From assembly GCA_001724265.1 (NCBI GenBank), contig MEDY01000226.1:1-47764 (forward strand): a DNA stretch of 47,764 nt. Direction: 5' to 3'. The translations under genes were made by a program, and so were the position numbers. The notes under the pieces were generated by a model, which saw only the letters and a program-made list of their open reading frames with translations, was not told where the DNA came from and searched no databases. This document shows, in pieces, positions 1,997 through 32,309 of the stretch; position 1 is the stretch's first letter, and every line of letters begins with the position of its first letter. This DNA comes from Rhizaria sp. SCN 62-66 (lineage: Eukaryota).

Positions 1997-2524
1997 TTAG
2001 GTCAAGTCATCCTCCTCATCTTCGTCATCGTCGCCGTCATCATCACTGTCACTGCCACTCTCGCCCCCTGCGCCCGCGTCTGCGCCAGTGTCCCGCGCGG
2101 CCGCCGCGGCAAACTCGGCCCAGGCGCGGAAGTACCGCGTGGGCTCCCGCTGCGCGCAGTCATAGTGCCCACCCTCCGGAAGATACAGCCACTGCGTGCG
2201 CGGCCGCCACACCAGCGCGCCGTCGCCGTCGCGCTCGCGGTCACTGCTCTGCGCACGGTCGCTGGCGGCGCCCACGGGGGCGTGGAAAACGCGGCCCTGG
2301 AGGCACGAATCGCGGGCTGCCAGCGCGAAGACCGGGGAGCCGCGCGCGAGCGCAGCCGCAGCGTCGCCACGAGCCTTCGCCTTCGCGCTCGCGCTCGCAC
2401 TCCCACTCAGAGCGTCCGCAGTAGCGGCGGCAGTGACGGTGGCCGCAACGGCACTTAGGAGCGCTGGAGGCACGGCCGCCGCAGCTGCAGTCACTCCGGC
2501 AGCCGCACCGGTATCAGCGCCCTG

Positions 2525-2555
<31 letters not shown>

Positions 2556-9516: not shown

Positions 9517-9845
9517 GGTCAAACTGAGCTTCTAAGCGGCGCTATAAAGGGATTAGTCTTGAAAGCAGCAGTAGTATGCCAAGAGCTTAGAAAAAGTGTT
9601 GCTGTCGGACGCGTTGGCGTGGTCGGCAGAGCAAAGATACGATGACACGTCGTCATCTGCTGTCGCCAGTGGTTCGCAAAAAAATAGGACAGCGAAAGCT
9701 TGCGCAAAGTGGACGGAGAAGTCGACCGGTGTCCGTGATTATTTCGACGCACCATCGTTAACCAACTAAATCAGACGTATAAGATGATATTATCTCACGT
9801 ACACTATGCCATCCCAATATTTTCACTGTCATAGAGATCGTCCCC

Positions 9846-12800
9846 ATGGCGAGCATTCTCAACGCGGATTTCACCGTGGTGAGCTACAATGGTGGCGCTA
9901 TCGCGGGCCCCACGGGCGTCGCCAAGGTCCTTACCGCCAAGCCCATGGAGCCCTTTGCTCCCCGCTCCACGCATCGCGGCTCGACCTTCGACCTGGTGCT
10001 CGAGTACCGCGGCGAGGGCGACTTTTCGCTCTCGCACATCGTGTTCCAGGCGCCCAACTACTCTCACGTCACTGCGCCGCTCACCGCGGGCATCGTCTTC
10101 GTGTCGGCCACGGCGCCCAACATCGCCGCGTACTCGTCTCAGTTTGACAACGCCTGCGCGGACTCGTACCAGGAGGCTCCCATTGCCGGCGCGCCCGTGC
10201 CCGCGGGCTTCTTCCGCTTCGCGCCCTCCGGCCCTGCGGCCATCGCGCCCATCCTCGCGTCGTCCGCGCGCGGCCGTTTCGTGCACATCAAGTTCACCGA
10301 GTCCGCCGGCACCGACGAGAACATCGACTTCGGCCCCTTCTTCCTCCTTGGCTCCCGCAGCAGCGCCGGCTCTGACGTCGCCACGGTCGTCCGCTCCACC
10401 GGCGCTGGCTACGACGAGATGGCCGAGGACGTCGCTGCCTGCGTGGCCGCGGGCCTGATGCGTGCCCCCGTGGACCGCTTCCAGGTCAACACGCTCACGG
10501 CCGACAACGAGAACACGCTGACGGACATGCCCTTCGTCTGCCTCGTCGCCGCGGACGACCTCAGCTCGCCCGCGCATGCCGACACCAAGGTCGCGCGCGC
10601 CGCGCTGGCCGCCGTGGCCGACGCCTACCACACGGCCGCCGCCGCCGCCGCCGCCGAGGCCGCGGCTGCCAACACGCCCAACGCGCCGCGCCTGAGCCGC
10701 GCGGTGAACTTCGTCGTCATCGACGCGACGACCGAGGCGTCTGTGGCCGAGCGCATCGTGCAGTTCATGGGTTCCGACGTGGCGGACCTCACCGCGCTCA
10801 CCGCTGTCGTCACGGCCTTCGCCAACAGCACGGCCACGCACCCCGCCGCCGCCGTGGCCGCCGCCACGGCCGCCGCGCACCCCACCTCGCAGTTCTACCT
10901 GCTCCCGGGGCTCACGCCGGCGGACCTCACCGAGGAGGCCACCGAAGACGGCTCCGGTGACCCCGACGTCACGGACATGAACACCCCGCTCCCCGGCGCG
11001 CCCCGCGCCGCGCCCATGCCCGAGGCCGTGGTCCCCGAGCCCAAGGCAGGCGCCGCGCTGACGCTCGCGGGCGGCGCGCGCTTTGTGCTGGCCGCCGTCG
11101 ACGCGCGCGGCGCTTCGGTCAAGCACGTGCTCGGCGCCGGCCGCAACACGTCCGCCCACATCGCCGCCGCGCTCGCCGCCAAGAACATCCCCGCGCTCTC
11201 CGTCTCCTCCGACGCCACCGCCGACGCCGACGCTGAGCTGGTCAAGGGCTTTGCGGCGTTTGCGCAGGCGTTCGGCCTCGCGTGCCAGGAGCGCAACAAG
11301 GTGCACGGCGACAGCGACGACGCCGATGCCGCGTTCGACTCGGCGCCTGCGCTCCCGCCCTCGGCCGACTCGGTCGCCGCGCTCTCCGCCGCCGCCGCCG
11401 CCGCCACTGCTGACAAGACTGATGAGGACGACGAGGAGGACGCTGAGCAGGATGACGACGCGCTTCTGGCGTCAGGCGCCGCTGTGGCAGAGGCCGACGA
11501 GGCGCTGCTGGAGCTGCTCGAGTCCAAGCTCAACTCTGCCCCTCGCCTGCCGGGCGACCGCCACCCGCACTTCCCTGCGCTGACTGTGGCGACGCGTGAC
11601 ACGTTCCGTGAGCTCGTCATCGAATCTTCCGCGCCCGCGCTCGTGCTCTTCTGCGACGTGTCGTTCGAGCGCGCGACCTTCGCGGCCGCCGCGCTGGCGC
11701 TCGTCGCCAACGTGCTGGCCGAGCACGCCGTGGGCGTGACGCCCGTGCTGTTCGACATGACCACCAACGATATTCCGGAGGAGTTTTACGACGACGATGT
11801 GTACGAGCAGATGAAGCTCTACGTCAAGAAGCCCCCCGCGCCGGCCAAGAAGCCCGCTGTGGGCGGCGGCAACAAGAAGGGCGGCAAGGTCGCCGTGTCG
11901 CTCAAGGCGCTGCAGCAGGCGCCCAAGCCCATCTGCACCAACGCCGCCGGGCTGGAGGTGTTTGTGCACGACCTCGAGTACAACTCGCTTGACGACGATG
12001 AGGAGGACGACGAGGAGGACGACGACCAGGATGCGGCCAACACCAATGAGGACCCCGTCGAGGGCGAGGAGCAGACGCTGTCGCTGCTCGACATCATGAA
12101 CCACCTCCGCGAGCACGCCGCCTTCGCCTTTAAGGCGCCCAAGGGCAGCACGGCCGACAAGGCCCTGACCGCCTCTGTCACGGCCGCGAGCGAGTTCCTC
12201 GAGGCGCTGGGCGACACGACCCGCTCGCCGGCGTCGATCTTCGCGTCGCTGCGCACGGTCGCCAAGATCCGCGGCGTCGAGGCCTGGCTGCTGCCCAAGG
12301 AGAACACGCTCGCGGCGGCCGCGATCAAGCTCTACAAGGACGCCTACGAGGCCGGTATGGCCGCAATGCGCGCGCTGGTGTTCCCCGTTGGCACGCTCAT
12401 GGTGCCGCTGTCGGCGCCCGTGCCTGCGGGCATCGACCTGTCGGGCGCGCGTGACGTCAAGGATATTGCACCCGGGCTTACCCGCCACGCCAAGGTTGTT
12501 AACAACTCGCTCGAGGCGATCCAGGGCATCTTCCAGGGTCAGAAGACGTGCCGCGCGTTCTTGCGCATGCTCACCACGATGCTGTGCACGCACCCCGACG
12601 TGTGCCTCGCCGCCGTGGCCAAGAACAAGCCCGCCTTTGCCAAGTTCGGCGCCGCCTACGCCGCGGCGCTCGAGCAGACGGGTGTTTTCACCGTGACGCC
12701 GCGCCTGCCCGAGCCCGTGGTGGCGGCACTGGGCGTGTCGTACGCCAAGACGGACGCGCTTCTGGCCAAGCTCACTGACGCCGCGCAGTTCGACTCGGTC

Positions 12801-13451
12801 TCCATCTCCTTCGATGCTAAGGGGCTGCGCCAGATCGGCATGATCCTCGAGGACTGCGTGCACGCGCTGCGCCCCGCTGTGGCCGCTCACTTTGAGACCG
12901 AGCTGCCCGCGCGCACCCGCGGCTTGCTGCCTTCGCTGCGCTGCCCCGCTGCGCTGGACCGCGTGCTCGAGGGCTACGTCGATGTCGACGTCGTCCCCGC
13001 GCCGCTGGGCAAGAACGGCAAGCGCCCCTCGGGCCCCCCCAAGGGCCCCAACGGCCGCGCGCTCTCATCGACGCGCGTGCGCAACGTCGATTCGCGTCTC
13101 GTGGTCGTCATGTTCACCGACCCCTGCGACGACTCGTACACGCACCTGCCCGCCATCGCCGACATGGTCGCCGCGACGACGGCTAAGCACGCGCCCAAGG
13201 AGGGCGAGCCGCTGCCCGTGGTCTTTTATCACATGACAGCTGAGGCCGCGGCCGAGACGCCATTCGCGGACTCTCTCGAGACATTCCCCACGTTCGTGTT
13301 CTTGCGCTCCGGGTACGAGATGGGCGAGTACCGCGTCACCGCGCAGCCCGGCGAGGACGTTGCCAAGACCGTCGGCGTCACCGTCGACGCGCAGCTCTCG
13401 GCCGCCAGCGTCGAGGACCTCACCGCCGCGCTCGCCGACGTCGGCATCTGA
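9846..13451 (+). CDS. 1201-aa multi-domain thioredoxin/PDI-fold protein without CXXC
   Basis: Single long ORF with strong GC3. PDI-like segment (TRDTFRELVIES..ALVLFC..FDMTTNDIP) and C-terminal Trx-like segment (LVVVMFTDPC..ETFPTFVFLRSG). Beta-rich N-terminal domain and acidic linkers. Stop TGA. Confidence 0.7.
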   Translation: MASILNADFTVVSYNGGAIAGPTGVAKVLTAKPMEPFAPRSTHRGSTFDLVLEYRGEGDFSLSHIVFQAPNYSHVTAPLTAGIVFVSATAPNIAAYSSQFDNACADSYQEAPIAGAPVPAGFFRFAPSGPAAIAPILASSARGRFVHIKFTESAGTDENIDFGPFFLLGSRSSAGSDVATVVRSTGAGYDEMAEDVAACVAAGLMRAPVDRFQVNTLTADNENTLTDMPFVCLVAADDLSSPAHADTKVARAALAAVADAYHTAAAAAAAEAAAANTPNAPRLSRAVNFVVIDATTEASVAERIVQFMGSDVADLTALTAVVTAFANSTATHPAAAVAAATAAAHPTSQFYLLPGLTPADLTEEATEDGSGDPDVTDMNTPLPGAPRAAPMPEAVVPEPKAGAALTLAGGARFVLAAVDARGASVKHVLGAGRNTSAHIAAALAAKNIPALSVSSDATADADAELVKGFAAFAQAFGLACQERNKVHGDSDDADAAFDSAPALPPSADSVAALSAAAAAATADKTDEDDEEDAEQDDDALLASGAAVAEADEALLELLESKLNSAPRLPGDRHPHFPALTVATRDTFRELVIESSAPALVLFCDVSFERATFAAAALALVANVLAEHAVGVTPVLFDMTTNDIPEEFYDDDVYEQMKLYVKKPPAPAKKPAVGGGNKKGGKVAVSLKALQQAPKPICTNAAGLEVFVHDLEYNSLDDDEEDDEEDDDQDAANTNEDPVEGEEQTLSLLDIMNHLREHAAFAFKAPKGSTADKALTASVTAASEFLEALGDTTRSPASIFASLRTVAKIRGVEAWLLPKENTLAAAAIKLYKDAYEAGMAAMRALVFPVGTLMVPLSAPVPAGIDLSGARDVKDIAPGLTRHAKVVNNSLEAIQGIFQGQKTCRAFLRMLTTMLCTHPDVCLAAVAKNKPAFAKFGAAYAAALEQTGVFTVTPRLPEPVVAALGVSYAKTDALLAKLTDAAQFDSVSISFDAKGLRQIGMILEDCVHALRPAVAAHFETELPARTRGLLPSLRCPAALDRVLEGYVDVDVVPAPLGKNGKRPSGPPKGPNGRALSSTRVRNVDSRLVVVMFTDPCDDSYTHLPAIADMVAATTAKHAPKEGEPLPVVFYHMTAEAAAETPFADSLETFPTFVFLRSGYEMGEYRVTAQPGEDVAKTVGVTVDAQLSAASVEDLTAALADVGI

Positions 13452-14338
13452 GTGACGCAAGTGCGTTTGAGTTAACTGCACTGTTCGAAGTGCACCGCCG
13501 GTACTAGCTTTAAAAGCCAGTCAGCTTTATTCGTGAGCAGGGCCATCGTCACTCGCTACATCAATGCATGACACAATATTCAAGAAATACATCAGATCAA
13601 ATTTTGTTACAGGTAACACGATAAGAATACTACTATGTGATTGGAGTGATATGATAAACATAGTTTGTATTATATGAGAGGTGTGAGTAACTTTTACAAT
13701 GTTGATACGTAACTAAGATGCGTGCGTGTCCGGGATGTGGTTTTGGCGTGAGGAACATAGAATCAAGTTGGAGTAAAATACGTGTTTCCACTGAGACATG
13801 TATGTGTGCGGGCGTACGCCGAACTTCGCAATAAGAAGCAGTATGCATTTCTGCAACCGTCTGGGATAGCGAGATCGGTACACACGCGCAACACAGTCAT
13901 ACATGTGATCATAGAAGAGGATAATGAGAACGGCAAAACGAGGCAGAGTTGGCTCAATATGGTTGAGTGTAGCATGAAGCGCGTCACACGCGCTGTGCAA
14001 CATGGGAATGTTTCGCGATGTTATTAGCACACAACACGGTTGCGCTGTTGCAGTCCGTCCATGATATGAAACGCTTGCAGCGTTACATGCGGCGTCACTA
14101 GCCGCGAAACAACCATGACACAAAACAAGACAGATCGAACCCGCAAAGGACGGACGAAGACTGCATGTGTAGCGCTGTGGATGTGAGGCGAACCGGGAGC
14201 TAGCGCAATGCGCACGAGTGATACACACCGTTAGTAAGGCAGCATCCATTAAATCAATAATTGATTGCATGAAAAACGAAAATTAAATTACAACAACAGC
14301 AAACCCATACGGGAAGATAGACACAAGCAAAATATACA

Positions 14339-14364
14339 TTGCACTTTGAGTTGCACTTTGAGTT
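14339..14364. repeat. 12-bp tandem duplication TTGCACTTTGAG x2
   Basis: Direct reading. Confidence 0.8.
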
Positions 14365-15175
14365 TAAAGTAAACCACAACTAAAGTACAAAACACAAGAC
14401 AAGTACAAACAAATTTTAAAAAAGCAACACAAAAAACCATTACAAAACTCAAATTACGCTCCGCTGAGTCAGCGTGACTGGAGAATGACCATGCACTGCA
14501 GCTGCGTACAAACCGCTGCAAAAACATTTGGAATTACTTTCCAGCCACACACAGAACTGACAAAAGTAGAGATTGGGTACATCGTAAAGAACAAAACTCC
14601 TGAAGATGTGAGTGCGACTGCCAATGCTATTGGTGACTGCTATAACTGCACTTCAGTGCACTGGGCTAGGTACGAGAGAGTGAGAGCGCAAAAGAGGGGT
14701 GAACGCGACACACACGCTACCTACAGAAACCTCGCGTCTTCTTAAGAAGAATGTACCAAAAACACCAGCACGAAAGTCGTGAGCGTTAAAGCACACAAGA
14801 ATAGAAAAAAACAGACTCACTTAAAGATACTTTAACACTGTGATTATTTTGCACTTACTGCGGCGCAGAGAGGTCACATACACAGAGGAGGAGGTAGAAG
14901 ATACGAAGAGAAAAAAATATTCCACTGAGTTTGATGGTCACAAATCCAAGCCGACATGCATGGAATATAAGCAATATCAAAAATAAAATGTTTGACAAAG
15001 AAATGTAAGGATTGACAAAGAGTTGGAATAGGAAGCAACACAGCCACAAAAATAAATAAAACATTGTCAAAATTAGATTATAATCCCGTATTTTAACAAG
15101 AATCGGGAAACTGTTAAAACACTTTTCCACTGCACTCACTGTTTGACACTGGCAGCAAAAAAGGCCGGAAAGTTG

Positions 15176-15893
15176 TTACATCGCACCGCCACCGCCAAAG
15201 CTGTGCTTGCGCTTCATGCCCATGACCTGGAGCTGCTGCTGCTGCTGCTGCTGCCCGTACGGCATCACAGCCGCCGGCGAGTCGTTGACATCGCGGTCGT
15301 AATGCACATTGTGGCCGTTGTAGCCGTCGAAGCCTCCGCGGTGACCGCGCTGCGCGCGAGGGGAGTAGTCGCCGTTGCCGTGGCCGTTGTCCGCGCCATC
15401 GCCGTAGTCGCCCTCGTCGCCATACTCGCCGTCGCCGGTGTGGTCGGTGTGCTCATAATGGTAGCTCTCGCGCATGGCGCCCACACTGCCACTGCTCTCG
15501 CCGTCGTAGTCACCGTACCCGCCGTGCGCGTGTCTCCGGTCGTAGTGCCCGTAGTTGTTGTAGTCGGGGGCCTGCGGGTCGCTCTGCTCGTCGCCAGTGA
15601 AGGAGACGTCGTAGCCCGGACCGCGGCCACGCGCGTCCTGTGTGCTGTCCCAGTCGTTGTTGTCCTCCTCGCCCGTCTCCGAGCGGCCGTGATCGTGGCT
15701 TGCGCCGCGGCTGGGGTCGTACCAGTCATCAAGACCCGCGCCCGCGGTTGCGATAGGGCCGGGAGCGCCGAAGCTCTGGCGCGAGACCCCGGCGCCGGGG
15801 CCAGCGCCGAAGCCACGCGGCGGGCTGCTGCTGTTTGAGCTGTAGCGCGGGATGTTGCCGTAGTTGCCTACGTTCTGGTAGCCAGCGAACTGG

Positions 15894-15926
<33 letters not shown>

Positions 15927-16719
15927 CCGGAAGCGCCCCAGCCGCCGGCGTTGGCGGCGCGCGGGCTCGGGTTCGCAGCGCGAAAGCCCGCACCAACGCC
16001 ATTGGTAGCATTGACATTGCCATTAACGTAGCCATTGCCATTACCAGCAACGTTTCCATTGCCATTACCGTAGTAGTTGTTGTTGGCACCGTTGTTCGCA
16101 GGCACAGGACTACCCGCGGGGCCAACGGTGACGACGGCGGCGGCGGCCGCAGCGGCCGCGGCAACAGCGGCGGCTGTAGTGGGCGTCAGCATGCGCGGCA
16201 CGATCGACGCTTGGCGCTGCTGGCCCTGCGGCTGCGTTGGCAGCTGCTGCTGTTGCTGCTGCTGCTGCTGCATCGGTGGCTGACCAGGAGCACCGCGCCC
16301 ACGCATCTGTTGCTGCTGAGACAAGTACATCTGCATCTGTTGTTGCTGCTGCTGCTGCTGTTGTTGCTGTTGGAGCTGAATTTGCACGAGCATCTGCTGG
16401 TGCGGCTGTAACTGCGCGTTCTGTCCATTTTGCACGAACTGTTGGGGCGGTGCTGACGGCTGCTGCATGCCGCTGCGCGCAGGGGGCAGCGCGGCAAAGC
16501 CAGCGCCAGCGCCGTTGTTATTGTGAACATTGGCGTTGGCACCGACGCTGGCGTTGACGTTGCCCTGGTTGAGTGTGCCCATGGAGACGCCACCGGTGGA
16601 GAATGCAGCGATCAGCGCCGCGGGCGGGAGGTCCGACGACAGATGCGCAATGAACGCTGCGCGCGCCTGCGGAGTCATGTTCTGCAGCGCGGCAAGCTGG
16701 CCTGGGTTGAGGCTGAGAC

Positions 16720-16754
<35 letters not shown>

Positions 16755-19700
16755 GGCTGCTGCGGGTACAGTGGCACCTGCTGGAACTGAGTTGCGTTGC
16801 TGGTGCCGTTGTTGTGGTTGTTGGCGCCCGCTCGTGGGGTGCGCGCCGGGACCGTGTTGTTGATGGCGCCGGGCCGCGGCGACGCGTTAGGGTTGCGCAG
16901 CCCCGCGCCCGCGTGCGGCGACGTGCCCACGGGCGAGCGCGACGGGCTCGCGCCGGGGCTGTTGCCGCCGCGCCCGGCGACCGTGAGCATGCCAATCTTG
17001 GCGGCGTCGCGGCCGAGGCTTCCGCTCTCGCTGCGACTGCGGCTGCGGCCAACCATGAGGAGCTCGCGCGCGCGGCTCGAGTCAGCGCCGTTGATGATGC
17101 CCTGGCCACCCTGCATGAGCCCGAGCCCACGGCCGCGGCTGCCGCGGCTGGAGCCGGACGGCGAAGGCGCAAAGGGCCCGCCCGCCGCGTTGTGGAACGA
17201 AACGTGTGACACGATCGCGTTGCGCGGCAAGCCGGGACCTGCGTCGTTGCCGACCGCAACGTTGTTGTTTGCGTTGCCAGCGGTGCCAGCGGCGAGAGCG
17301 CGTAACTGAGTTTGCTGCACGTCAAAGAGTGAGAATTGTTGTTGCTGTTGCTGTTGGAGAAGCTGTTGCTGCTGCATTTGCTGAAGGATTTGCTGCTGCT
17401 GCTGGGCAAGATTATACTCATTTTTACCCTTGTTGGCAAGAGCCGCACCGGCAACAGGACCAGCGGCGCTGCTGTTAGCGTTGCTATCGGTGTTGCTATT
17501 GACATTGTTGGTATTGCTGTTGGCGGTACTGTTGACATTAGCGTTGCTGTACTGGTAGACGCGGTCGGGACGCACAGTGACGTTGACTGACGAAGGCCGC
17601 GGCCTGCCGCCAGCGCCCGCGCCATTGCCAAGATTGTTCGACAGAGCCAGCGCGGCCGCGCCAGCAAGCGGAGCCAAGGAGCTCGCACCCGCGCCGCCGG
17701 CACCACCGCCCACGCCGGGCCCATTGCCTGCGCGGTCGCCGGCGCCGACACTGACGACGCCGGCGCCGAGACGCGAGTCCTCCGCCGTGCCGGCGCGAAT
17801 CCACGCCACGTCCGCCGTGCTGGGATCGTCAACGGAAGAGATCGCCAGCACGGAATCGGCGCGCAGGTGTGCGGGGGCGCGCGCGCTGACGCCGGCGCTG
17901 GGCGCGTCGTGCTCGTGGCGGCGGTGCCCGCGGCGGGGGAAGCAGTCAGGGCACATGCCGTGGCAGTCGCCGCGGCAGCCGCAGTCGGCGTCGCACCCAC
18001 ACTCGTCCTCATCGTCGTCGTATATCTTGTTCTTCTGTGCCGCAATCGCGGCCGCGGGCACAGCGTATGGCGGCGGCGGCTGTTGCTGCAGCTGCGCCTG
18101 CGTGGCGACCCCAGCACCGGGCGCGATGACAGTCGGCGCCTGCAAGGGAGCGGCAGCGGCAGCGGCACCGACTGCTATTGTGACAGGGGCGTTGCCGACC
18201 GCCTGAGCAGGGCCGATGGCGTTGTTCGCCTCGTTAGCGGCAGCCATAGCCGCGAGCTCGCCCGCGTAGCTGTCGTCGATGTCGTCATCATTGTCGTCGC
18301 CCTCACCGTCGCCGTCAGTAGTGGCAGATGTTGCTTTGCCGGCGCCGGCGCCCTTGCCTGCGACGTTGGCGACGCCCCCCTCGTGCTCGTACAACACCTG
18401 CAGCGTCTCGTGCCGGATCGGCGGCGGCACGGCGTGTGGGAAGCGCTTGTCCATGACGTGGTGATAAAAGTCCAGCGCCGCGTCATGCAGGATATCGCGT
18501 TCTTCGCCGCCGTTGCCGCTGCCGTCGTCGCCGTCGGCGCAGTCATCCGAGTCCTCGCCGTCGGCGGCGTTGCCGTTCGACGAGCCCGCCGCAGCGCCCA
18601 GCAGGCGCGACGGCAGCGGCGCAACAGCCACGCGCGGGTACTGCGAGTCAAGCGGGCGCGGCGCCTCGCGCGGCTGCAGCGTCGTCGACGCATCAGCCTC
18701 GTCGCCGATCACGCCCACGCTTACCGCGGCGTCGGGCGACGGCTTCAGCGGAGTGGGTACCGCGGCCTCGTGCGCAGCCACCAGCAGACGCTTGCGGCGC
18801 GCGCGCGAGCAGCGCACGGCGATGAACACGATGAGCAGCAGAACGGCCACGGCGGCTGCGACGGACGCCGCGATGACCGTGATAGATGACGCACCAGACT
18901 CGGTCGCCGGGATGCCGCCGAAACCGATACTGCGGGGGCACACAGTTGCCGCGTCCGCCTGGTTCAGCTCGCAATCAACGTCGCGGACGCCAACGCCGCG
19001 CGAAGTGTCGATGGCGGAGAGCACTTGTCCGCGGAAAAAAGTGGAGTCCGAGTCGCGCATCGCACCGTACTGCGCCTTAAGCGCGCTATGGACCGCGGTG
19101 GACGAGTACGTCGCGTTAACGTCGGCGGGCAGCACGGTCGTGCGGAGCAGCATCGATGGCACTGGCAACAGCGAACCGTCTTCAGTGTATGTCTGCACGT
19201 TACTGGCGGATGCCATGGGCACAAACATAAGATTGCTGAGCGTTGGCCGCATAGACGCCGTTTCAGCGCCATGACTGCGAGCGTCGCTATCCACATTAAC
19301 GCCGACATTGACACTGGATGAGTTGAACGCGTCAAGCAGGTCCGTGTCGAGCGCGGGGTGCGGGCGCAGCAGCCACATGACGACCTGCTTGCTCGTCACA
19401 CGCGCAGTGCGCACGTACGCGTGCGGCACACGCAGCGCGAGCGCGAGCTCCACGGCGGCGCTCAGGGCCACCGCGCGTGGGTCCGCGACGACGTCGCCAA
19501 TCCAGCTGCTCAGCGGGCCGACCTCAGTCTCGCCCGACGCAGTGGTGGTCGCCGACGTCGCCTTCGAGGACATCGAGGAGGTGTTTGTCGAGGACTCCGA
19601 GGCCGTGACAGGGATGACGACGGGCGCGCCGGCGGGCGTGGCGGTCTGGTCGAGCGCAAACGTGAGCTCAATATAGGGCTGCGCGCAGTCGTCGCCGGTG

Positions 19701-22700
19701 TAGCCGTCCCTGCACACACAGGCAGTGCAGTCGGCAGAGGCCATGCCGGTGCCGGCGGCGCACTGCAGCGAACAGCGGTCGCAGCCGAGCATGCGGCCGG
19801 AGACGGCGTCGCGGCGGCCTGAGCTCACCCACTTGCCGGTGCACTCGCACTCGGTCGAGCACTTGGTGGGCTGCGTCGTCGACAGCGCGGTGTTGACGCC
19901 GCTGTTGAGGCACAACGGCACTGCGGCGAGCGCGGACGCGGTCGTAGCCGTGCACGCAGGCGGGATGCGGCACGTGGTGCCGGTCCACCCACCGACGCAG
20001 GAACACGTGACCCATTGCTTCGTTGTGACCACGCCACCCGAAGGTGCGGTGATCGATGTGCCAGTCACGCACGTTGAGTTGTTCCCACACGTCGCGCAGA
20101 GGTCTGTGGTGCAGTCATCGCCGCCACGGCCCGCGACGCAGTCGCACGTTCCGGTGGCTTCGTTGCATACGCCGTAGCGGCCGCAGTTGATCGAGTCGCA
20201 GGCCGATACAATGGCGATAGGCCCCGAGGGCGTGGCAACGCCGCGGCTGTGCAGCAGCACGACGCGGTACCCAGCTCCCGGTTTGAGGCCGTAGCTGCCC
20301 AAAGGCGGGAAGGCGAGCGAGAGGCCCTGGCGCGCAGCGAGCGCGACGCCGAGCAGGAGTCCCGCGCCGGAGCCGGGGGGCGTGAGGTACGCCAGCACGG
20401 GGTCGTCGGTCGAGCCGCGGTAGTCCCAGCGCACATTGACGCGCGAGGGCGCCACGACGATGCGCGGGCCCAGCTCGGCGCAGATGTTATCCAAACCGGG
20501 CGGGATCGTGCACGAGTCGCCGATGTGGCCGTTGACGCACACGCACGTCTTGCGCAGCGGCTGCGAGTACGCCAGCACGGGGTCGACGCTCTGCCGCACA
20601 GTTGGCGACTCGGGCAAGCACTTGGCGCGCGCGAGCCCCGAAACCGTGGACAGCACAGTGTGCGCGTTGCACACAGAGTTGAGCACCACGCACGTACTAC
20701 GTGGCACAGGTTTCGTTAGCGCGCTACAATGCGCGTCGTCGACGACACTCACGTTCTGAACTTTCATTATCACTGTTGTTGTTGGACTCTGCCGCTGTTC
20801 GCACACGATGCGTGAGATCTGCTCTCCGACGCCGCACGCGGTGTCGCAGGCGCCGTAGATAATGCGCCACGCGAAGGTCGCGTTGCAAGGCCGCAAGTTG
20901 CAGCTCGTAGACAGATCGGGCATCGTCGCGTTCGCAGTCACGCACTCCGATAGTGGCAGCAAGTCAGGGTCGGTGCTGTGGCCGTTCGCCTGCACAGCAA
21001 ACGCGGCGCCCGCATCGAGTGCCGGGAGCTCGGTCACCGACGCCCCCGAGGAGGGTACGGTGCGGCGGCAGACGACGGAGCGCGTCATGACACCCGCACC
21101 GCAGTGCGCAGAGCACGCGCTCCAGGCGCCGGCAAGGTAGTGCACGGCGCCGCAGGGCGCGGCGTAGCGAGGACACTCGACCGAGCGCGCGGGCGCGGTC
21201 GAGCCCAGCGCGAGGCAGTAGTCGACCGCAGCCTCGGACACGTCAGACAGCGCCAGCGTCTCAGTCGAGACGGCCGCCACGGTGAGCGACGGCGTCGAGG
21301 AGGTGGTCGCCGTGACAGTCGTGGTCGCAACTGAAGGGTCCTTGGGCGTGGTGGAGTTGACCGAGACGGAGCATGTGAGCTTGCGCTCCGTGTAGGCGCC
21401 CGCAACGCCCGCGGCGGCCGTGGTCGCGGCGAGCGAGCAGGCCAGCGGGCACGGCAACGGCTCCCCCGCAGTCCAGCGCGGGCACTCGACTGCGGGGCAC
21501 GGCCGGCGCAGCGCTGGCCGCTCCTGCGCTGGGCACAGCGACTCGCTGGCGGCCGTGGTGTTAGACAGCAGAGACACGCACTGGGCGGCGCGCGTCTCAA
21601 ACCGGTCGCCGCACGCGGGCGCGCAGCCGGTCCAGGGCGTGGTGAGCCATTGGAAGCACAGCCCCGGGTGGCAGAGTAGCTCCGCCACCGGCTTGTGCTT
21701 CGTGGGACACATGCGGTCGACGAGCACGGCGCCGTCATGGTTCACGCATTCGACAACGCGCGTGAGCGTGTCGCCGCGCGCGCACGCGTCGGCCGAGCAC
21801 GCGGGCCACTCGACCGTGCGCCACACGCGTGCGCACGCCTGCAGGTTGCACGTGCGCTCCACCTCGGGCTGCGTGGCGCCCGCGCAGTAGGAGTTGGCGA
21901 CGACGGCACCCGAGGCGGCGACCACGCAGGTGACCACGCGGCGCGTCAGGCCGCCGCCGCACGCGTGCGAGCAGGGCGGCCACGCCGTCACGCGCCACTC
22001 GTGCCGGCCGCTGGAGCCCACGGTCGCACCGGGGCACGGCGCGGGGCAGTCGCTGGAGCGCGCGGGCTGCGACGACGCGTCGCAGTATGAGTCGGCGACG
22101 ACGCGGCCGAAGGCGTCGCTGCACGCAACGGTGCGGTAGCGCGTAGCGCGGCAGGACGTGCACGCGCCCCAGTCGCTAGCGATGCGCCAGACGTACGTGT
22201 CGCACACGGGCGGGTCGCATGTCTCGGTCAGCGTCGGCTGCACGACGGCCAGCGAGTTACCTGATGACTGCGCGGCCGCAGTGCAGTACGAGGAGTCGAC
22301 GAAAGAGAAGTTTGTCAGCGAGGCTGTGCTGCGGATGGCGCCCAGCAGCGTCCAGACTGAGGTCGACTCGGCATCGAGCGTAGGTGTCGCGATCGAGTCG
22401 AGAGTGATGCGCATGCAGCCCACGTAGCGGACGCGCTTACCCGTGCCCGGAACGCCGCACTTGACGGACGAACATGACGTCAGAAACGGCTGTGTGGCCT
22501 TCGTCGGCAGCAGCTTTGCCAGCGACACCGAGGAGACTTCGAAGCCGTGCAGGCGCGCCGCGGGCGGGCACAGTGGCGGAACAGGCACCGCCGTGGTCGC
22601 GGACGCGGGCACGGAGCATGAGCCCCAGCGGCCGGCCAGCCAGACATACACGTCACAGGACTCAGAGCCGCCGCGGCGACACGTGCGCACGCGCGGCGGC

Positions 22701-25700
22701 TGCGCGCCCAGGTCCGCACAGTACGACGCGTCGACGGGCATCGCGAGCGACGCCGAGTAGCAGGCCGAGGCGCGGGTCTCAGCGCCGACGCCGCAGGCGA
22801 CGTCACAGCCCGACCAGCCGCCCGGCAGCACGGTGGCCGCGAGCGTCGGGATGGTGGTGTTGATCGTGATAAGGCCGCCGAACGCGGTCGAGCCCGCGGC
22901 CTCGTTCTCATCACAGCTCACGGTCGCGTTGAGCGGCGCGCCGTTGGACGAGAGCGCCCATACTTCGTCAGACGTGCAGCGCCAGCCATAGCTCTGGCAT
23001 TGATACAACACGCACGTCTCGGTCGACGCAGGCGCGTCGCCGATAGACGCGCACTCCGAGGCCGGCAGCGCCTCGCCAGTGGTCGAGTGCGTGCACGTGA
23101 CCACTCGGGTGCGCTCGCCGGGCGGGTCTTCTGGGTACGTCAGGCACAGCTTCGCGCAGTCGGACCACGGGCTGTGTAAGAAGAGTTAGCAGCAAAATAC
23201 ACATGAAGTATCGGACGAGTGAGCCAAGCAAAAAAGATGATATATGCAATAGAAAGCCAACCGAATGAACCGAAGATTAGAAAAAAAAGGTGAATATTTA
23301 GCAAGTGAATATTTGTTGTTTAGACGTACCCGACATGCCAGACGCGGTTGTAGCAGTCGTAGTTAGCGCAGGGGACGACCGAGGCGGGCGCGACAAGGTG
23401 CGCGCAGAGCGATGAGTCGATGGTTTTGTTGTCCGATAGGCGGAAACACGTCACGGTGCGCGTGCGCACTGTGGTGTCGCAAGGCGCTAGCACGGTCGCG
23501 GTCACCTCGCCGATGGTGACGCCGCGCAGATCCCACACGATGGGGTCTTCGTCTAGGATCAGCGTCGTGTTATCTACGTCAATAGTCTCCGTGTAGGTCG
23601 TGACGACCAGGATAGGGTCCTCCACTGTAGGGTCCGTAATCTCGATAATGTCAGCGGTCTCTGTCCCGTCGGCTCTCTCGGGCATCACCTTGACGGGACC
23701 CTTTTGGTCGGGCTTGGCGCTGGTGGTGCGTGCGCGGATGCCCGTGCTGGCTAACACACTGGCTGCGGCGCTCGCGACAGGGACAGCGTCGACACTGCTG
23801 AGTACACTGCCGGCAGTGGGCGGAAGACATGGCCCGTACTCGCCCGCGAGCCAGCCGACCGCGGGCGTGGTTTCACAGGCCATGGAAAACTGACCTGTCG
23901 TTGACGACGTCTCTGTGGCGATGCAGCGGCCCGACGTCGTGCCCGCCGCGCACACCGCGCCTACGGGCTTGTGAAGCGCGTTGAGGGCGTCGGAGATCAT
24001 CAGCACGGCGGGATCGCTAGTGCACGTGGAGCCGAAGAGACAGCGCTCAGTGCACGGCGACGCCTCGTCGGGCCCGCACGGCGTGAGCCCGTAGCGGTCG
24101 CAGACCGACGGCGAGCACTCGCCCTGGACGCCGCAGTAGCCGACGCCCGAGACGCCCAGCCCTCGGTCGCAGGAGTCGCGCGTGGTCAGCAGGCGGCACG
24201 CGGTCGAGCAGCACGGCATGTCGTCCGAGCACTCGGCGCCTGTGCGCAGCTGACAGTACTTGTCGCAGCAAGGGTGACCCGCGGCTGTGAGCACCACGGA
24301 GCCCGGGTCACACTGCTCGCCGTCGTCCAGCACGCCGTTGCCGCACGCGGGGGTCAGCGCGGGTAGACAAGCCGCGCCGGACACGCGCTCAGACGCGTGC
24401 GCGGGCGCGACGTGGTTGATGACGTTCGTCAAGTGGTTGCACATCGGCGTGCGCGCGCCCGCGGCGGAGAAAGCCACGCGCTGCGGGTTAAGCGTGTCGT
24501 TGCTGGGCAGCGTGCCGTAGTTGACGTCAGTCTCAACGGCCATGACGCCACCGTGCGCGTCGCGTGGCGTGGCGCCCAGCGCCACGCCGACGTGCGCGAG
24601 GAACGGCAGAGCCGAGTCGCCCGCGAAGGACGACGCCGAGACGCCGACTTGGTTATTGCACAGCGAGCTGGCGTAGGGCGACGCAGTGGCTGCGGAGGCC
24701 GGCAGCGTGACGGGGCACGCGGTGAGCTGGTGCACCAGCGCGGCGGCGTCGTCGGGCGCGCTGGCGCGGTAGCGTGTAAGAGCGGGTAGGATACCGGACA
24801 CAAGCGCGGGGCACCCCGCGGCGTCGGGGTCGTCGCTGGGCGAGTCGTAGTTCCACGGCGTGGACTTGTTCGTCGACGGCGAGGTCATGAGCAGCACGCG
24901 CGCGGCCGCCAGATGCAGTGATAGCTGCGGCACGGTGATGGTGTTGGCCCAGGCCAGCAGCACGGCGACGCGCGAGAGCACGATCAGCGGCGAGGCGCCC
25001 GTGGCGAGGTAGTACCCGTAGTCGACCAGGAAGGTTACCGTGAGCAGCCGGGTCACGTCCTGATGCGGGATGCACTGCGGGAACGGTACCACCGTCTGCA
25101 GCTTCGCCTCAGTTGGATCTGTCGTTGTATTTGTTGTTGTTGTCGTGGTGGCCGTGGCCACGGCTGCCAACCCGGCGGTCCCCGCGGCCATGTCCACGGT
25201 GCGGTGGTACATCGCGGCGTCGGGAATGACCACGTCAATGGTCTCACGGCCATCAGCGGCCGCAGCGGCTGCGGCAATGTTGGGGTCGCCGGGCCCGTAA
25301 TAGCCGACGTTGAAGCCATCTAAGTAGCTAGGCAGCCCGGCGTCGGCTATCACGTCGATGATGACGCCCGACCCCGTCTCGGTCCCAACCTCCCCCTCGG
25401 TGCCGATCTCGGTGTCAATCTCGATCTCGACTCCGGTCTCCACTTCGGTGTCGTCGGTCTCAGCTTCAGTCAGAGTGTCGGGTTCGACCGTTGTCTCCAC
25501 GTCTGCCTGCGGGGCAAACACTCTGGCGCGGGTGCGAGCGCGAGCGCGGGCAAGAGAATGCGAGCGCGATGTACTCGAGCGAAGGCTCCGAGAGCGGGCA
25601 CTAGCCGTGCGGTGCCGCGCAGAGCTGGCGCTGGCACGAGGCGAGCCAGCAGAAGAGCTGACGGGACGCGACACGATGACTGAGCCGGGGGCCGGCGCGC

Positions 25701-26673
25701 TGCCGCCGCGGCGAACGCCGACGAGTCCTCGGCCGCCGCGCGCCACGGACGCCGCGCGTGCCTGGCGCACCGTCGCAGCGCCAGCGGCCGCTGTAGAAGC
25801 GGCGACGTTCGCAGCGAGGCTCTGTGCGGCAAACGCAGACTGCGCTTGCTGCTCTTGTTGCTGTTGTCTGTTGTTGTTATTGTTGTTAATCTGCGCGCGC
25901 AGCCCGTCCAGTCCCCCGCGCGCGACGCCAGCCGCCGCGGAGCTGGGTTTGCGTGCCTTGGCGCTGGCAGTGCTGGGGATCCAGGCAGCGGGGAGGACGT
26001 CCAGCTCGCCGAAGAGAGGACCGGAGATGCGACCTGCAACCGAAAGCGCCGATGCGGGCGTGAGCGCAAGGGCAGCAAGCTGGGCCGTCACAGGGACTGC
26101 GCGGGAGCGGGAACTTGGACTCGCGCTCGCGCTCGCGCCAGAGCTCGAGCTCGAGCTCGATCTTGAGTCAGCATTTGAGATAAAGCGAGCAGAGGAAGCA
26201 GCGGCTCTGCCAGACGCGACGGCCGCGGCCGCGAGGGGCGCGGCGGACGCTATACTCGGCATGTCAGCGCTTTCCGGCGGGATGATCGTGAAGAGTGCGG
26301 TGACAGGTGCCCCGTTTTGCTCGAAGGTGGCGTGGTACGTCAGCAGTGGAATCGTGATGTCTTCAGAATGGGTGTCGGATGTGAACACGGTCGCCGTGGG
26401 CTGAGTGAACAGGTTCGTTAACAGCGTCAGGTTGAGGTCGTAGGAGACAGACTCGGCCACAAAGCGCACGCGGAGACGATCTCCGAAGGGTGCACGCGTG
26501 TTGGAGCCCGGCGCGGGGAATGCAGCGGGCGTGAAGGACGCGAACGGGGAAGAGACCGAGGTGAAGGCAACATCGAGGGCTGAGAGCGGGGTGGGTGCTA
26601 ACCCTAAAGCGGCAACAGCTGGTGCTACAAGGCATAGCCACATCAACAGCATGTTCAGCACCACCCGCCACAT
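15176..26673 (-). CDS. Giant type-I membrane protein, ~3779 aa: signal peptide, prodomain-like region, inactive reprolysin-like domain, disintegrin, ~11 TSP1 (ADAMTS-type) repeats, EGF-like repeats, TM, Q/N/G/Y-rich tail; exons 26673-23330, 23171-15176
   Basis: The two large ORFs join through a phase-2 intron giving WHVG|PWSDC. Disintegrin CGNGVLDDGEQCDPG..CC..C. Repeated W.xG.W..C...CG.G...R.V.C. TM VIAASVAAAVAVLLLIVFIAV followed by RCSRARRKR. Stop TAA. Confidence 0.85.
16721..16753 (-). repeat. (CAG)11 polyQ run, one of several in the receptor tail (15896-17405)
   Basis: CTG array on the + strand. Confidence 0.9.
23172..23329 (-). other. Spliceosomal intron joining the two giant ORFs
   Basis: GTACGT donor, AT-rich body, GCTAAC branch point ~15 nt before the ACAG acceptor. 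Confidence 0.9.
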
Positions 26674-27206
26674 TGCTGCGGCTTCAGTCAGACGCGCCAG
26701 TGGCGCTGCGAGAAGGAAGAAAGGGAGTGGGCTAGTGCGGTCTCAAGGGGCCAAGTTAGCGTCAAAAACGATCTATTAAAGGATCAAGCTGTCGAAAATA
26801 AAATACCGAAAAAGGTGATTAGGTGAATTAAAAAACGTCAATTAAGATAAAACTTCAAACAGACCGTTACACGACAGTGAGTATGCACGCGTGACGTTTT
26901 TGTTAATCATCCGAACCCATCTCGAGTCGGTTGGCTGATTGAGACTGAAGTCAGGGTTCAAACAGTCGAAGCCACGTGTTCTAGCCGAAAATGTTCGAGT
27001 TTGCTTGTTTTCCTTCCTACAGCACAGAAAAATGCAGGTGATTTCGCTAGTCACCATGTTGAACTATCTATGTATTCTACTAACCAATGTCATACTATCA
27101 TATAATGCCAGTAGATCTGGCCGATAGGCTTGGCCTCTTCCAGCTGCTCTTCCCCTCACTCGTCATCATACCTAGCAAACGCCCTCACCCGCGCGCCGCC
27201 ACGCAC

Positions 27207-28382
27207 TCATGCCCGACCCGCGGCGGCGACGGTCTGCTCGACCTCCGCGCGCGATGGCATCGACGGCAGCGTGCCCTTGCGCGAGACACACACCGCGGCG
27301 GCGGCGGCGGCGCGGCCCATCGCCTCGCGCGCAGGGCGTTGCTCGACAGCCCAGGCGGCTGCGAAGACGCCGCGGAAGCAGTCGCCCGCGCCCGTGGTGT
27401 CGACCACGCGGCCGCCGATCGGCGCCGCGGCCGCCACGCTCGCTTCCACAATCACATCGCTCGCCGACACGGCCACAGGCGTCGCGGCACCATCGGCGGC
27501 AGCGTTGCAGTTCTCGCTCTTGCGGTCGCTGTCGAGCGCGGCCTGGGTGGTGAAGAGGATGGCGCCGTGCTCGCCAAGCGTGAGCAGCACGCGCCGCACG
27601 CCGCGCGACAGCAGCGCCGCCGCCGCGGGCAGAATCGGTGTCGGATCAACCTCGCACACGCCCCACTTGTCGCCGTTCCCATCAGTTGCAGCCATCGTCT
27701 TGACGGCGTCAGCGCTGAGGATGTCAAGCGGCACGTCGGCGCCGGCAACGCGCGCAAGCTCGGTCTCGTTGAGCGAGATGAGCGCAAGGTACGGCAGCAC
27801 CGCAGTGTCGATCGCACTGGCGCGGCCGCCGACGTCGAGCATCGCCGGTACGCGCGCGGCGGCGGCGGCGCGCGCCACGGCAAGGTTCACGGTGTCGGGG
27901 ATCTCGCGCTGCAGCAGCACGGCGCCCGCGGACGCCACGGCGGCGGCCTCGGCGGCGGAGAGTGCGGCGCCCGAGTCGGCGTGCGCGGGCCACTGCTCGT
28001 TGGCGCCCAGCGCGATGATGATCGAGTTGTGCGAGGAGGCGTCGAGGATGATGAAGGCCTGGCCCGTGGGGTGCTCGGTGTGGCGCGTGACGAACTGCGT
28101 GTTGACGCCGCAGTTGGCGAAGGCAGAGAGGAACATGTCGCCATGGCCGTCGGTGCCGACCTTGCCGACGAAGAAGACGTCATTCTTGCTCTCAGCTCTG
28201 TCAGATTTGGCAGCGTCGAGGTACTTGGCGGCGGCGCCGGCCTGGTTAGAGCCCTTGCCACCGGGGCCGATCATGCTCTGCACGCCGTCAACGGTCTCGC
28301 CAACTTTAGGGACAGACTGCACCTCGATGTAGATGTCAGCATTTGCACTGCCGACGACCACAAGGCTCTTGTTAGACGACAT
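27207..28382 (-). CDS. RBKS: Ribokinase (PfkB family), 391 aa
   Basis: VVVGSANAD, GGKGSNQA, LLQREIP, NETEL and VDTTGAGDCF motifs. Stop TGA. Confidence 0.93.
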   Translation of the reverse strand: MSSNKSLVVVGSANADIYIEVQSVPKVGETVDGVQSMIGPGGKGSNQAGAAAKYLDAAKSDRAESKNDVFFVGKVGTDGHGDMFLSAFANCGVNTQFVTRHTEHPTGQAFIILDASSHNSIIIALGANEQWPAHADSGAALSAAEAAAVASAGAVLLQREIPDTVNLAVARAAAAARVPAMLDVGGRASAIDTAVLPYLALISLNETELARVAGADVPLDILSADAVKTMAATDGNGDKWGVCEVDPTPILPAAAALLSRGVRRVLLTLGEHGAILFTTQAALDSDRKSENCNAAADGAATPVAVSASDVIVEASVAAAAPIGGRVVDTTGAGDCFRGVFAAAWAVEQRPAREAMGRAAAAAAVCVSRKGTLPSMPSRAEVEQTVAAAGRA

Positions 28383-28874: not shown

Positions 28875-30500
28875 ATGCCTTACAAGCACGGTCGCAGCGC
28901 GTCGCCGGCGCGTTACGTCCCGCAGCACGCCTCCTCGGTGGATACCTCCCTGGTTCACGCCATGCAGACCCACTTAGCTCCTGCTGGGCGCGCGCGGTCC
29001 CAGTCGCCTGCCCGGCCGCAGTCGCCCGCGCACGCGACGTCGCCCGCGCGTCCGCAGCATCAGGCCCAGGGGCAGCACGTCCGGTCCAAGTCCCCGGCTC
29101 CGCGCGCGCAGCTTGTGGTCGCCACCTCCCGAACTGGCAGCAGCAGTGGCGGGCACTTCCACGGCAGTGGCAACGATAGTCCCAAGCACGCTCACAACCA
29201 GCAGCATCACCAGCAGCATCACCAGCAGCATAAACATCATCACCAACAGCACAATAAGCACCAGCACAACAAGATCGCGGGGGCTCCGCTCGCGACGCCC
29301 GCAGCCGCGTCCCCACGCGTCCTCAGCACTCAGAAGATCATTGCCACCTCCGCCGCTGCGCCTGCCGCTGCGCCTGCCACTGTGCCTGCTGTTGCTGCTG
29401 CGGCGGCATCGCCTGTGGCCGCGACGCCTACCGGCACGCCCCGCGTGCTCGTGGTGACGGCCGTTGCCAAGGATGGCAAGGACCACGGTCACGGCCCGGG
29501 CCAGAGTAAGGCCAAGGCCAAAGGCCTGGTGAAGGGCAAGAATATCGCGATCAGTGTCGGCGGCGCCGTCGTTGTTAAGAAGGCCCAGCTGCAGCCCGCT
29601 GCTGCCGCCACCGCCGCCACCGGTGCCGTGAGCCATGCCGCGGCCGGCCCCGTCGCCGCCGGCCCGAGCGCGATGACCGACAACCCTCTGGTGGCGGCAT
29701 TCCTCGCGCAGGCCGCACCGCCCCCCGCGCCCGCCTTCGCCCACGCCGCGCACAGCGCCGCCGCCGCGTCGCTCGGTCTTTCGGGCTCGACCGCCAGCTA
29801 CAACGCCTCAACACACAGCGCCTCCGCGCACGGCGCCGAAGCGCGCTCGCCGGGCGCCAAGAAGCGTATCCGCACCAGCATCGGCGCCGCGCACAGTCAA
29901 AACCTCGCTCACGGTCACGTTGCTGCCGCGGATGGCAGTGCCGCGGACAACGACGTCCAGTTGCCTGCGCCGGTGACGACAAGCTCTATTGGCCGCGCGC
30001 CGCTGAGCATCACCACGTCCGCCGCGGCCCACGGTCACAATCTCGCCCACAGTCACGTTGGCGGGCACGCAGCTCACGGCCACGCTGCTCACAGTCTCCA
30101 GGGACTGGCCCACGGTTACTCGGCGGTGGACCCGCGCGCGTTGTCATCGCGTCTCGGCTTGCCCGACACGGTCCTGCCCGCCAACGCCAGCGTCGTCGTC
30201 CAGGTCGTCACCAAGAACCTCCCCGCTGTCCAGAGCGCCAGCCACAACAGCGCGGGCGCAAGAGCATCTTTCAGCGACAGCGGCGACGCCGCCGCTGCTG
30301 GTGCGCCGGCGTTGCGCAGCGGCAGCGGCAAGGGCGTTGTGATCACGACGCGTAAGCGGTCGCTGCCGGCCAACGCCACCGTCGACGCCGACGCCGCCGA
30401 GCCCTGCGAGCCGGAGCTGCAGCAGCTGCAGCAGCTGCGCGATCAAGACAATGAGTTCGAACGCGTGCAGCAGCAGCAACAGCAGCTGCAACAACAGCAA

Positions 30501-30534
<34 letters not shown>

Positions 30535-32309
30535 TCTTGCAGCCGCACTTGCAGCACGAGGCCGAGGCCACCAGCGCTCGTGCCCCGCAGTCGCTGCACA
30601 GCTCTCTGCTGCGCGCGCAGCACCGGTCCGCTCTGCTGGCCTCGGCGCCCGCCGCCGCGTCCCTGCTTTCTGCGGAGGCGCTGGCCTCGGGGCTCAGCGG
30701 CGCGGCGCACGTCTTCGTGCGCAACCTCTCTGCCGACCTGGACGAGGCCGCGCTGCTGCGCGAGGTCTTCACCGACGGCGACGTCGACGTGCTGCGCTGC
30801 GTGCTGCACCGCCACGCCGACTCTGGCGCACCGCTGGGCTCGGCAGAGCTCGCGCTGCCTTCGCTGCGCGCCGCGGAACTCCTGGTCACGCGTCACCAGG
30901 GCCGAGTCGTGCACGGCCGCCCGCTGCGCCTCGCGCTCTGCGCGCAGGCCGCGCTCAAGCCGCTCAACAACAACGCGCGTAGCACCGCGGCGGGCTCTGC
31001 CGGCGTCGGCTCTGTGTTCGCGCACTTCTCGCCCCCTCCCTCCGCAGCGGCGCACGTGCCCGTGCCCGTGCCCGCTCCCGCAGCTGCAGCCGCGGCGGGC
31101 CCGGCGCCCGAGAGCGCGGCCGTGGCGGCGGCATCAGAGGCCGCGCTGGCCGCAGAGCGCGCCGCCGCTGCCGAGGCCGCGACAGTGCTGTCGACGGGCT
31201 CTGACCCCGTGTATCTGCACGCGCAGGCGTTTCTGTCCCCTGAATACCTCGACGTCGCCAACGCGGCGTACTCGAGCCAGTACCTCACGCACCCGCTTGC
31301 TCGCACGCTGCTGCCGGCGCCACCGCGCGTGGCCTTCGAGCCGAGCTGCGGGCAGACGTGGCACCAGTTCGCGCTGCTCGCTATCGCGCGCTCCGACCGG
31401 TCGCGCGCGCTCGCCCGTCCACCGCTGCCGCAGCAGCTGCAGGGGTTACCGCCGCCCGCGCCGCTTCCGCTGGGTTGCGTGTCGCCCTTCGCGCATCCCT
31501 GGGCGTCGTTTGACGGCGTCGACCTTCGGCGCAACGCGGCGTGTCTGCGCGCCGGCGCCGCGGGCCCCGTGCGCGGGGGCGTCCACATCGAGGCCGTGAT
31601 CGACGGCGCCGATGGGCTGAGCTCGCAGCAGATGGTCGACCACCTCCGCAACGCCGCCGCCGACGAAGGCATTCCGCGGTACGAGCGCGACATGACGCAG
31701 CGACTCGACTTCGACGCCGCGCTGGCAGCGGTCGAGGCCGGCGGGCGCAAGCTGGCGCAGCGGTGGAGCTGGCTCGACGTCGAGCTGCAGCCCGCCGACA
31801 CCAGCGCGACCGAGTTCGCGCTCGAGTGGGAGCCGGAGGGCCGGGAGCGGCTGCGGCGCGTGCTGGCCGAGGACGCGCGCCGCGACCGCGAGCGGTGGCG
31901 CTGGGAGCAGGAGGAGCGCGAGCGCCGCGAGAGGTCCGGCCGTGAGAGTGACCGCGACCACAACCGTGATTTTGACCGTGGCTTTGACCGTGATCGCGGC
32001 CGCGACTTTGACCGCGACCGTGCGCGCAGTAACGGCAGTGGCGGCGGCGGTGGCGGCGGCGGTGGCGGTCAGGGGCGGGACTTTGACCGGGGCCGTGACC
32101 GCACGCCTCCGCGCTCTGGGAACGGTCATGCTCAAGGCAATCGTGGGTTTGACCGTAACCGTGGCCCTGGTGGGGACCGTGGGCGTGACCGTGAGCGCGG
32201 TCAGAGTCGCGATCGCGAGGGCACCGGCAACCGGGGGCACAACAACGGCTCGAACCGGCAGGGCTCCGGCGTGCAGGGTCAAAGCGCGCATATTCCCAAC
32301 GCAGCTTGA
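28875..32309 (+). CDS. 1144-aa RNA-binding protein: one RRM (~30708-30940) plus an RD/RE/RG-rich C-terminus
   Basis: RNP2-like VFVRNL, RNP1-like PLGSAELAL, GRPLRL end. Low-complexity SPAR, QQHH and polyQ segments. Stop TGA. Confidence 0.78.
30468..30533 (+). repeat. CAG/CAA polyQ run
   Basis: Direct reading. Confidence 0.9.
31948..32220 (+). repeat. Degenerate (TTT)GACCGY repeats encoding DRDFDRG units
   Basis: Multiple TTTGACCG and GACCGC/GACCGT copies. Confidence 0.75.

Follow-up and report, generated by a model that had tools for sequence, protein, structure and literature searches.

A giant membrane-anchored ADAM-like protein with ADAMTS-type TSP1 repeats and a putatively inactive metalloprotease head, predicted in a likely unicellular eukaryote

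The ectodomain of a typical ADAM is compact, with a cysteine-rich domain and at most one EGF module before the transmembrane (TM) helix, and it carries no array of TSP1 repeats. A layout of this compact type is described for ADAM22, which also serves as a non-catalytic precedent that binds LGI1 (PMC5906670). [quoted passage not shown] Here, we describe a gene on the minus strand (15176-26673) of contig MEDY01000226.1, the analysed stretch of 47,764 nucleotides (nt) being called the window throughout. Its product is probably a type I membrane pseudoprotease that acts as receptor or adhesin, a dead member of a membrane-tethered protist M12B family.

Gene model and domain order

The gene is built from two long minus-strand open frames (23320-26742 and 15176-23185). 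Starting from the ATG at 26673, excision of 23172-23329 yields a stop-free protein of 3,779 amino acids (aa), in agreement with the original prediction that a 158-nt intron fuses open reading frames (ORFs) of 1117 and 2642 aa into about 3779 aa, the splicing itself being inferred. The putative intron has GT-AG ends (GTACGT at the 5' end, CAG at the 3' end) and a G+C content of 35% compared to 67-68% in the exons. It is the sole intragenic region with 80-nt windows below 0.42 G+C, while shallower dips (0.44-0.47) are located in the open low-complexity tail; by this measure, no further strongly AT-rich region, and hence no additional hidden intron, was seen in the gene. Joining the exons restores a six-cysteine TSP1 repeat including its two tryptophans, and when scored with a TSP1 profile that derives from seven database proteins, the chosen junction ranks first among 297 in-frame GT/GC-AG combinations (88.5 versus 79.9 bits). 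In a paralog (C313, see below), GTACGT begins five of seven AT-rich intron-like islands inside the coding span. Exon 2 fits a post-TSP1 profile of 12 database homologs from EGF to TM (E 4.5e-47) and exon 1 fits the heads of a protist M12B-disintegrin-TSP1-EGF-TM family, so that one family is matched by both exons at its two ends. It is highly likely that both frames belong to one gene. A pseudogene was ruled out, as neither stop nor frameshift occurs across 11.3 kb of exons.

The order signal peptide, prodomain-like region, reprolysin-like domain, disintegrin, about 11 TSP1 repeats, EGF modules, TM helix and tail, which had been read from the sequence before, was borne out by Pfam, family profiles, AlphaFold2, Foldseek and hydropathy (Table 1), but two domains among and after the EGF modules, one Ig-like and one forming an alpha/beta stalk, had been missed. 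The reprolysin fold lies behind a pro-domain and is followed by a disintegrin and then a cysteine-rich domain, as expected of an ADAM. In the Pfam scan, the disintegrin match (E 7e-5) stayed under the Pfam cut-off, the M12B domain was not called and ADAM_CR gave no match, the cysteine-rich part being identified by the family profile. TSP1_ADAMTS (PF19030) matched in one and six stretches of the two ORFs, respectively; the 11 units were delimited by hand, and a custom profile recovers ten of them at E<0.001. At the position of the Ig-like domain, homologs show Kre9_KNH Ig matches, and the domain is confidently modelled. The alpha/beta stalk has a predicted local distance difference test score (pLDDT) mostly below 60, and its structure searches were dominated by the Ig domain; with low confidence, its strand-helix order may resemble a ferredoxin-like/SEA fold, to which no structure matched. 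Atlas searches gave no usable match for the stalk, and with a Triparma relative (P0009) they gave ADAM clusters below 0.9 only. The idea of a conserved shedding motif in the stalk was dropped, as it was found in only 6 of 14 proteins examined. Given the inferred splice, hydropathy supports the single-pass type I topology claimed earlier, with one TM helix followed by the tail.

The metalloprotease-like head

The reprolysin-like fold was recognized correctly in the original prediction, which overlooked, however, that its metalloprotease site is destroyed. In alignment A1, the zinc-site positions of the window protein read Ala/His/Val/Pro versus His/Glu/His/His in all 39 other rows (one of which duplicates another), i.e., the three zinc histidines and the catalytic Glu of HExxHxxGxxH are lost, and among the aligned rows this loss is confined to the window copy. 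Matches limited to the CGNG motif in multi-stretch hits were excluded from the alignments. The pro-domain Cys of such proteases is known as the “cysteine switch”; in ten of ten relatives examined, the pro-region holds a cysteine at a switch-like position, and it is missing in the window protein. The scaffold of the head is kept, with the Met of the Met-turn aligned at A1 position 187 and the structural head cysteines retained (Cys accounts for 13 of the 17 invariant columns of A1). The AlphaFold2 model of the head reaches a mean pLDDT of 79.9, and the Foldseek top list consists of ADAM-family structures (ADAM22, ADAM17, ADAM10 and other adamalysins). Judged from these residues, the head is almost certainly unable to cut.

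Relatives in the host genome and in other eukaryotes

The host genome assembly searched (G000, 34.9 Mb) holds two paralogs with the full order. At C52:70636-77322 (-) (L041), the entire domain order lies intronless in one 2,229-codon frame with a near-canonical zinc motif (Asn in place of glycine). Within this genome, it is the prime candidate for an active enzyme encoded by a single exon. Its tail is Pro/Gln/Tyr-rich with three PPxY motifs. At C313:about 9900-24108 (+) (L045-L047), the same order extends over eight inferred exons and seven introns, with a canonical zinc motif, 36 TSP1 matches and one inferred intron between zinc motif and Met-turn. The paralog count suggested at the outset gave at least 12 loci with the TSP1-EGF-Ig-stalk module, the M12B head being shown for three and the full order found in C52 and C313. 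In C24 and C542, head and TSP1 repeats are present and the EGF stalk was not seen. At C423:7953-21980 (+) (L053-L054), a 4,676-codon frame with about 9% Cys and at least 18 TSP1 matches ends in EGF, Ig, stalk and TM as in the window protein, without an M12B match from its N-terminal hydrophobic stretch to the TM helix. The membrane-proximal module was also observed at C118, C486, C171, C173, C64, C307, C564 and C122. Classical ADAM-like genes coexist (C16, C298, C58), and in two of them, C298:2561-5647 (-) (L048) and C16:51552-53786 (-), a lone TSP1-like unit stands right before the TM helix.

A search with the P0009 head returned 48 database proteins of 975-3,103 aa. The full order (M12B, disintegrin, cysteine-rich domain, 11-17 TSP1 repeats, EGF, TM) occurs in 13 of these, all positive for the zinc motif, and nine of the 13 lie on transcript-like contigs that barely exceed the coding sequence. 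Named full-order members are TrLO_g4395 of Triparma laevis (P0009), TrST_g2227 of T. strigata (P0103) and g8162.t1 of EukProt (P0115), which resemble the window protein in domain order from end to end, in having 11-17 TSP1 repeats and in sequence (about 25-33% identity). Among the partial forms, one labelled Rmarinus has 11 TSP1 repeats (TM not seen) and one labelled Clim_evm has two. We take these unconfirmed labels to denote Rhodelphis or Rhodosorus marinus in the first case and Corallochytrium limacisporum in the second; most homologs lack a source name, and the family range rests on few labels. Across the family, the number of TSP1 repeats varies from 11 to 36. Most full-order relatives have tails of roughly 50-250 aa, with a WW domain in 4 of 13, whereas the tail of the window protein comprises 1,200 aa. 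In other eukaryotes, the same M12B head was observed joined to SH3, to hemopexin, to PAN plus kinase, or behind EGF and TSP1 modules (P0015, P0038, P0041, P0126, P0133); given this variety of partners, the head is, on sequence grounds, a mobile protist module.

The view of the architecture as a one-off chimera consequently did not hold, since the order is conserved in C52, C313 and 13 of 48 database proteins. The database check did find the same architecture, but under names such as “hypothetical protein”, as in the case of the Triparma proteins. Literature searches at the level of titles found no paper describing the family, with most subscription journals and supplements, whose domain tables could list the architecture, lying outside their reach; a study on ADAM evolution by Souza et al. 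from 2020 may include such proteins. The family is conserved in protists and apparently undescribed.

The host is likely a unicellular eukaryote. Sequencing runs that contain at least half of the window come from bioreactor or wastewater metagenomes or bear no label, and one of them may be the source; habitat was not read from runs with small word shares. The RFC subunit encoded in the window has named matches of 54-56% identity across plants, a chytrid and rhizarians, and in a quick tree it falls on the side where Amorphochlora is the single row with a name, which hints weakly at Cercozoa. An insertion in polyubiquitin is a rhizarian marker, and no polyubiquitin junction in which it could be read was found among eight ubiquitin loci. 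At L058 and L065 (G000:C3:11235-14019), tandem single-unit ubiquitin genes encode products that are two residues longer at the N-terminus and extended by three residues at the C-terminus. At L066:1501-5945 (G000:C706), on a contig that may be another organism's, we observed a very divergent small-subunit ribosomal RNA gene that is interrupted by four group I introns. The 180-aa ORF found there (L066 2095-2637) has a His-Cys box-like motif, presumably of the homing endonuclease type. The neighbouring genes in the window are given in Table 1.

Table 1. Gene structure and predicted domains of the ADAM-like gene, followed by the neighbouring genes in the window.
Feature	Position	Strand	Remarks
Exon 1	23330..26673	-	3,344 nt; signal peptide through first TSP1 repeat
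Intron	23172..23329	-	158 nt, phase-2 GT-AG, within second TSP1 repeat; splicing inferred
Exon 2	15176..23171	-	7,996 nt; remaining TSP1 array through stop codon
Signal peptide	26608..26673	-	aa 1-22; hydropathy only
Pro-region	25084..26607	-	aa 23-530; low-complexity inserts, cysteine-free
M12B (reprolysin) fold	24364..25083	-	aa 531-770; predicted catalytically dead; family profile 65.9 bits, AlphaFold2, Foldseek
Destroyed zinc site	24565..24597	-	H/E/H/H positions are A/H/V/P; Met-turn retained downstream
ADAM-type disintegrin	24091..24345	-	aa 777-861; Pfam, ADAM17 E 4e-7, family profile
Cysteine-rich domain	23869..24090	-	aa 862-935; family profile
11 ADAMTS-type TSP1 repeats	20687..23853	-	aa 941-1943; inserts lengthen five
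First EGF-like module	20510..20671	-	aa 1949-2002; family profile
Ig-like/FN3-like beta-sandwich	20201..20506	-	aa 2004-2105; structure matches Z 8-9.7
About four EGF-like modules	19685..20200	-	aa 2106-2277; EGF_2 E 0.003
Membrane-proximal alpha/beta domain with inserts	18887..19684	-	aa 2278-2543
Single TM helix	18815..18883	-	aa 2545-2567; basic stretch after; hydropathy
Cytoplasmic tail	15179..18814	-	about 1,212 aa; A/G/Q/N-rich, polyQ runs, one PPxY at aa 2814
Alpha/beta hydrolase	1997-4564	-	
RFC subunit 2/4	7270-8325	+	
Open frame	9783-13451	+	1,222 codons; no Pfam match E<=0.01
pfkB kinase	27207-28382	-	
Open frame	28875-32309	+	1,144 codons; no Pfam match E<=0.01
RING finger protein	33002-35314	+	
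Open frame	35649-45746	-	3,365 codons; weak PH domain match only, E 2e-6

Proposed role and comparison with known systems

Signal peptide and single TM helix would place the head outside the cell and the 1,212-aa tail inside, with the TSP1/EGF stalk lifting the head tens of nanometres above the membrane. There, the dead M12B domain could bind a ligand rather than cut it, as described for ADAM22 and LGI1, while the TSP1 repeats could contribute adhesive contacts and the disordered tail could link binding to the cytoskeleton or to trafficking. Most likely, the protein would serve to attach the cell to prey, surfaces or other cells or to recognize them, and our guess is a grip on prey or surfaces. 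To our knowledge, few candidate surface molecules exist for the recognition of prey or substrates by protists, and the at least 12 related stalked receptors of the host genome add candidates of this kind. Predictions class parmaleans as phago-mixotrophs (PMC10328945). The adhesion or recognition receptor of the original prediction stands as the best reading, with prey capture, gliding or cell fusion as possible uses suggested there, but the term “chimeric” understates a conserved family.

Several observations weigh against a pseudoprotease receptor. ADAM22 tops the Foldseek list by a narrow margin (E 2.7e-12 versus 3.3e-11 for the active ADAM17), a rank that lends no support. No orthologous dead copy from other organisms was obtained by protein word search, family search or metagenome scan, the word search among longer proteins recovering the window protein itself and the scan 17 loci that all match short disintegrin-like stretches only; the dead state consequently rests on one genome. 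Regarding the splice, joints were sought in the contigs of 4 of the 16 listed sequencing runs, and none was found at the intron; a contig from a polyA library (depth 2.4) enters the intron by 45 nt unspliced, and another from a run of unspecified kind crosses it unspliced. The former may be DNA or pre-mRNA, and a joint missing from contigs neither proves nor excludes splicing, which also limits the spliced-read check proposed earlier. A lone joint at 21684-21771 (run X8), whose ends are non-canonical, was left uninterpreted. The lack of a spliced read and the unspliced RNA-labelled contig would suit two separate genes, one for a dead ADAM-like protein that is secreted and one for a TSP1-EGF-TM protein. 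However, the second ORF starts in the middle of a TSP1 repeat, lacks a signal peptide and reaches its first Met after about 120 codons, the gap bears the donor found in paralog introns, and C52 as well as the 13 database proteins hold both halves in one chain, which renders two genes very improbable.

A further point against the receptor is the terminal branch of the window head, the longest in the quick tree (1.94 versus a median of 0.67), which would fit a new function and equally relaxed selection. Together with the long inserts in the pro-region and in five TSP1 units and with the headless paralog C423, it could mark the head as a decaying leftover on a plain TSP1 adhesin of which only TSP1/EGF stalk and tail are functional; yet head cysteines and Met-turn are kept, the model is confident and the branch of the active paralog C52 is also long (1.34), and we consider such a leftover improbable. 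Less improbable, although still unlikely, is a single gene whose dead head regulates the active paralogs C52 and C313 as decoy, substrate adaptor or trafficking partner. Pseudoenzymes frequently regulate active kin, and the same genome encodes two paralogs of full architecture whose zinc motifs are intact or near-canonical. On the other hand, at least 12 loci carry the TSP1-EGF-Ig-stalk module and C423 lacks an M12B match; as the stalk is thus used without a protease, a general role in display or adhesion is favoured over a regulator.

In a broader context, ADAM head, ADAMTS-type repeats and membrane anchor come together in a protist family that has named members among stramenopiles and for which other labels hint at further supergroups. 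The origin of ADAMTS thereby becomes phylogenetically testable as shared ancestry versus convergent assembly. It is conceivable, albeit doubtful, that it represents an ancient, undescribed ADAM-TSP1 protease/pseudoprotease family of several supergroups, which would serve phagotrophs in gripping and processing the things they touch, be older than animals and be ancestral to the M12B-TSP1 pairing of ADAMTS. If true, the pairing of M12B and TSP1_ADAMTS in animal ADAMTS would be inherited and not an animal invention. The window copy would stand as an independent example of such a receptor, a giant M12B pseudoprotease, from a non-animal lineage.

With ADAMTS, the window protein shares an M12B head followed by tandem TSP1_ADAMTS (PF19030) repeats. 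The family profile matched ADAMTS-5 over the catalytic part only (E 2e-8), the best sequence match in the PDB being ADAM17 (E 1.9e-26), and the scores favour the latter. Pfam models of the ADAMTS spacer and cysteine-rich region gave no match at E<=0.01 in the window ORFs or in 16 full-length relatives, and the TSP1 units are contiguous, leaving no space for a spacer. An ADAMTS identity was ruled out by EGF modules, TM helix, tail, true disintegrin and missing spacer. The apicomplexan TRAP family and THSD7A, the latter among the PDB matches of the profile, are likewise single-pass membrane proteins that bear TSP1 repeats; TRAPs mostly bear vWA domains, and we know of no metalloprotease or disintegrin head in either. 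Signal peptide, pro-domain, M12B fold, true disintegrin, cysteine-rich domain, EGF, single TM helix and tail are shared with ADAMs, whereas 11 TSP1 repeats, an Ig domain, about five EGF modules and the stalk are inserted between cysteine-rich domain and TM helix in a protein about four times the size of an ADAM. In the quick tree, the family stands apart from ADAM10/17-like rows and the host's own classical ADAMs C16 and C298 (Shimodaira-Hasegawa-like approximate likelihood ratio test, SH-aLRT, 93), a tree of 56 rows with midpoint root, few reference ADAMs and no ADAMTS that does not settle descent. By ectodomain layout and this tree, the window protein is not classified as a typical ADAM. Its full-order database relatives keep the zinc motif, whereas the window copy is predicted to be unable to cut, like ADAM22, which together with ADAM11 and ADAM23 represents the non-catalytic ADAMs.

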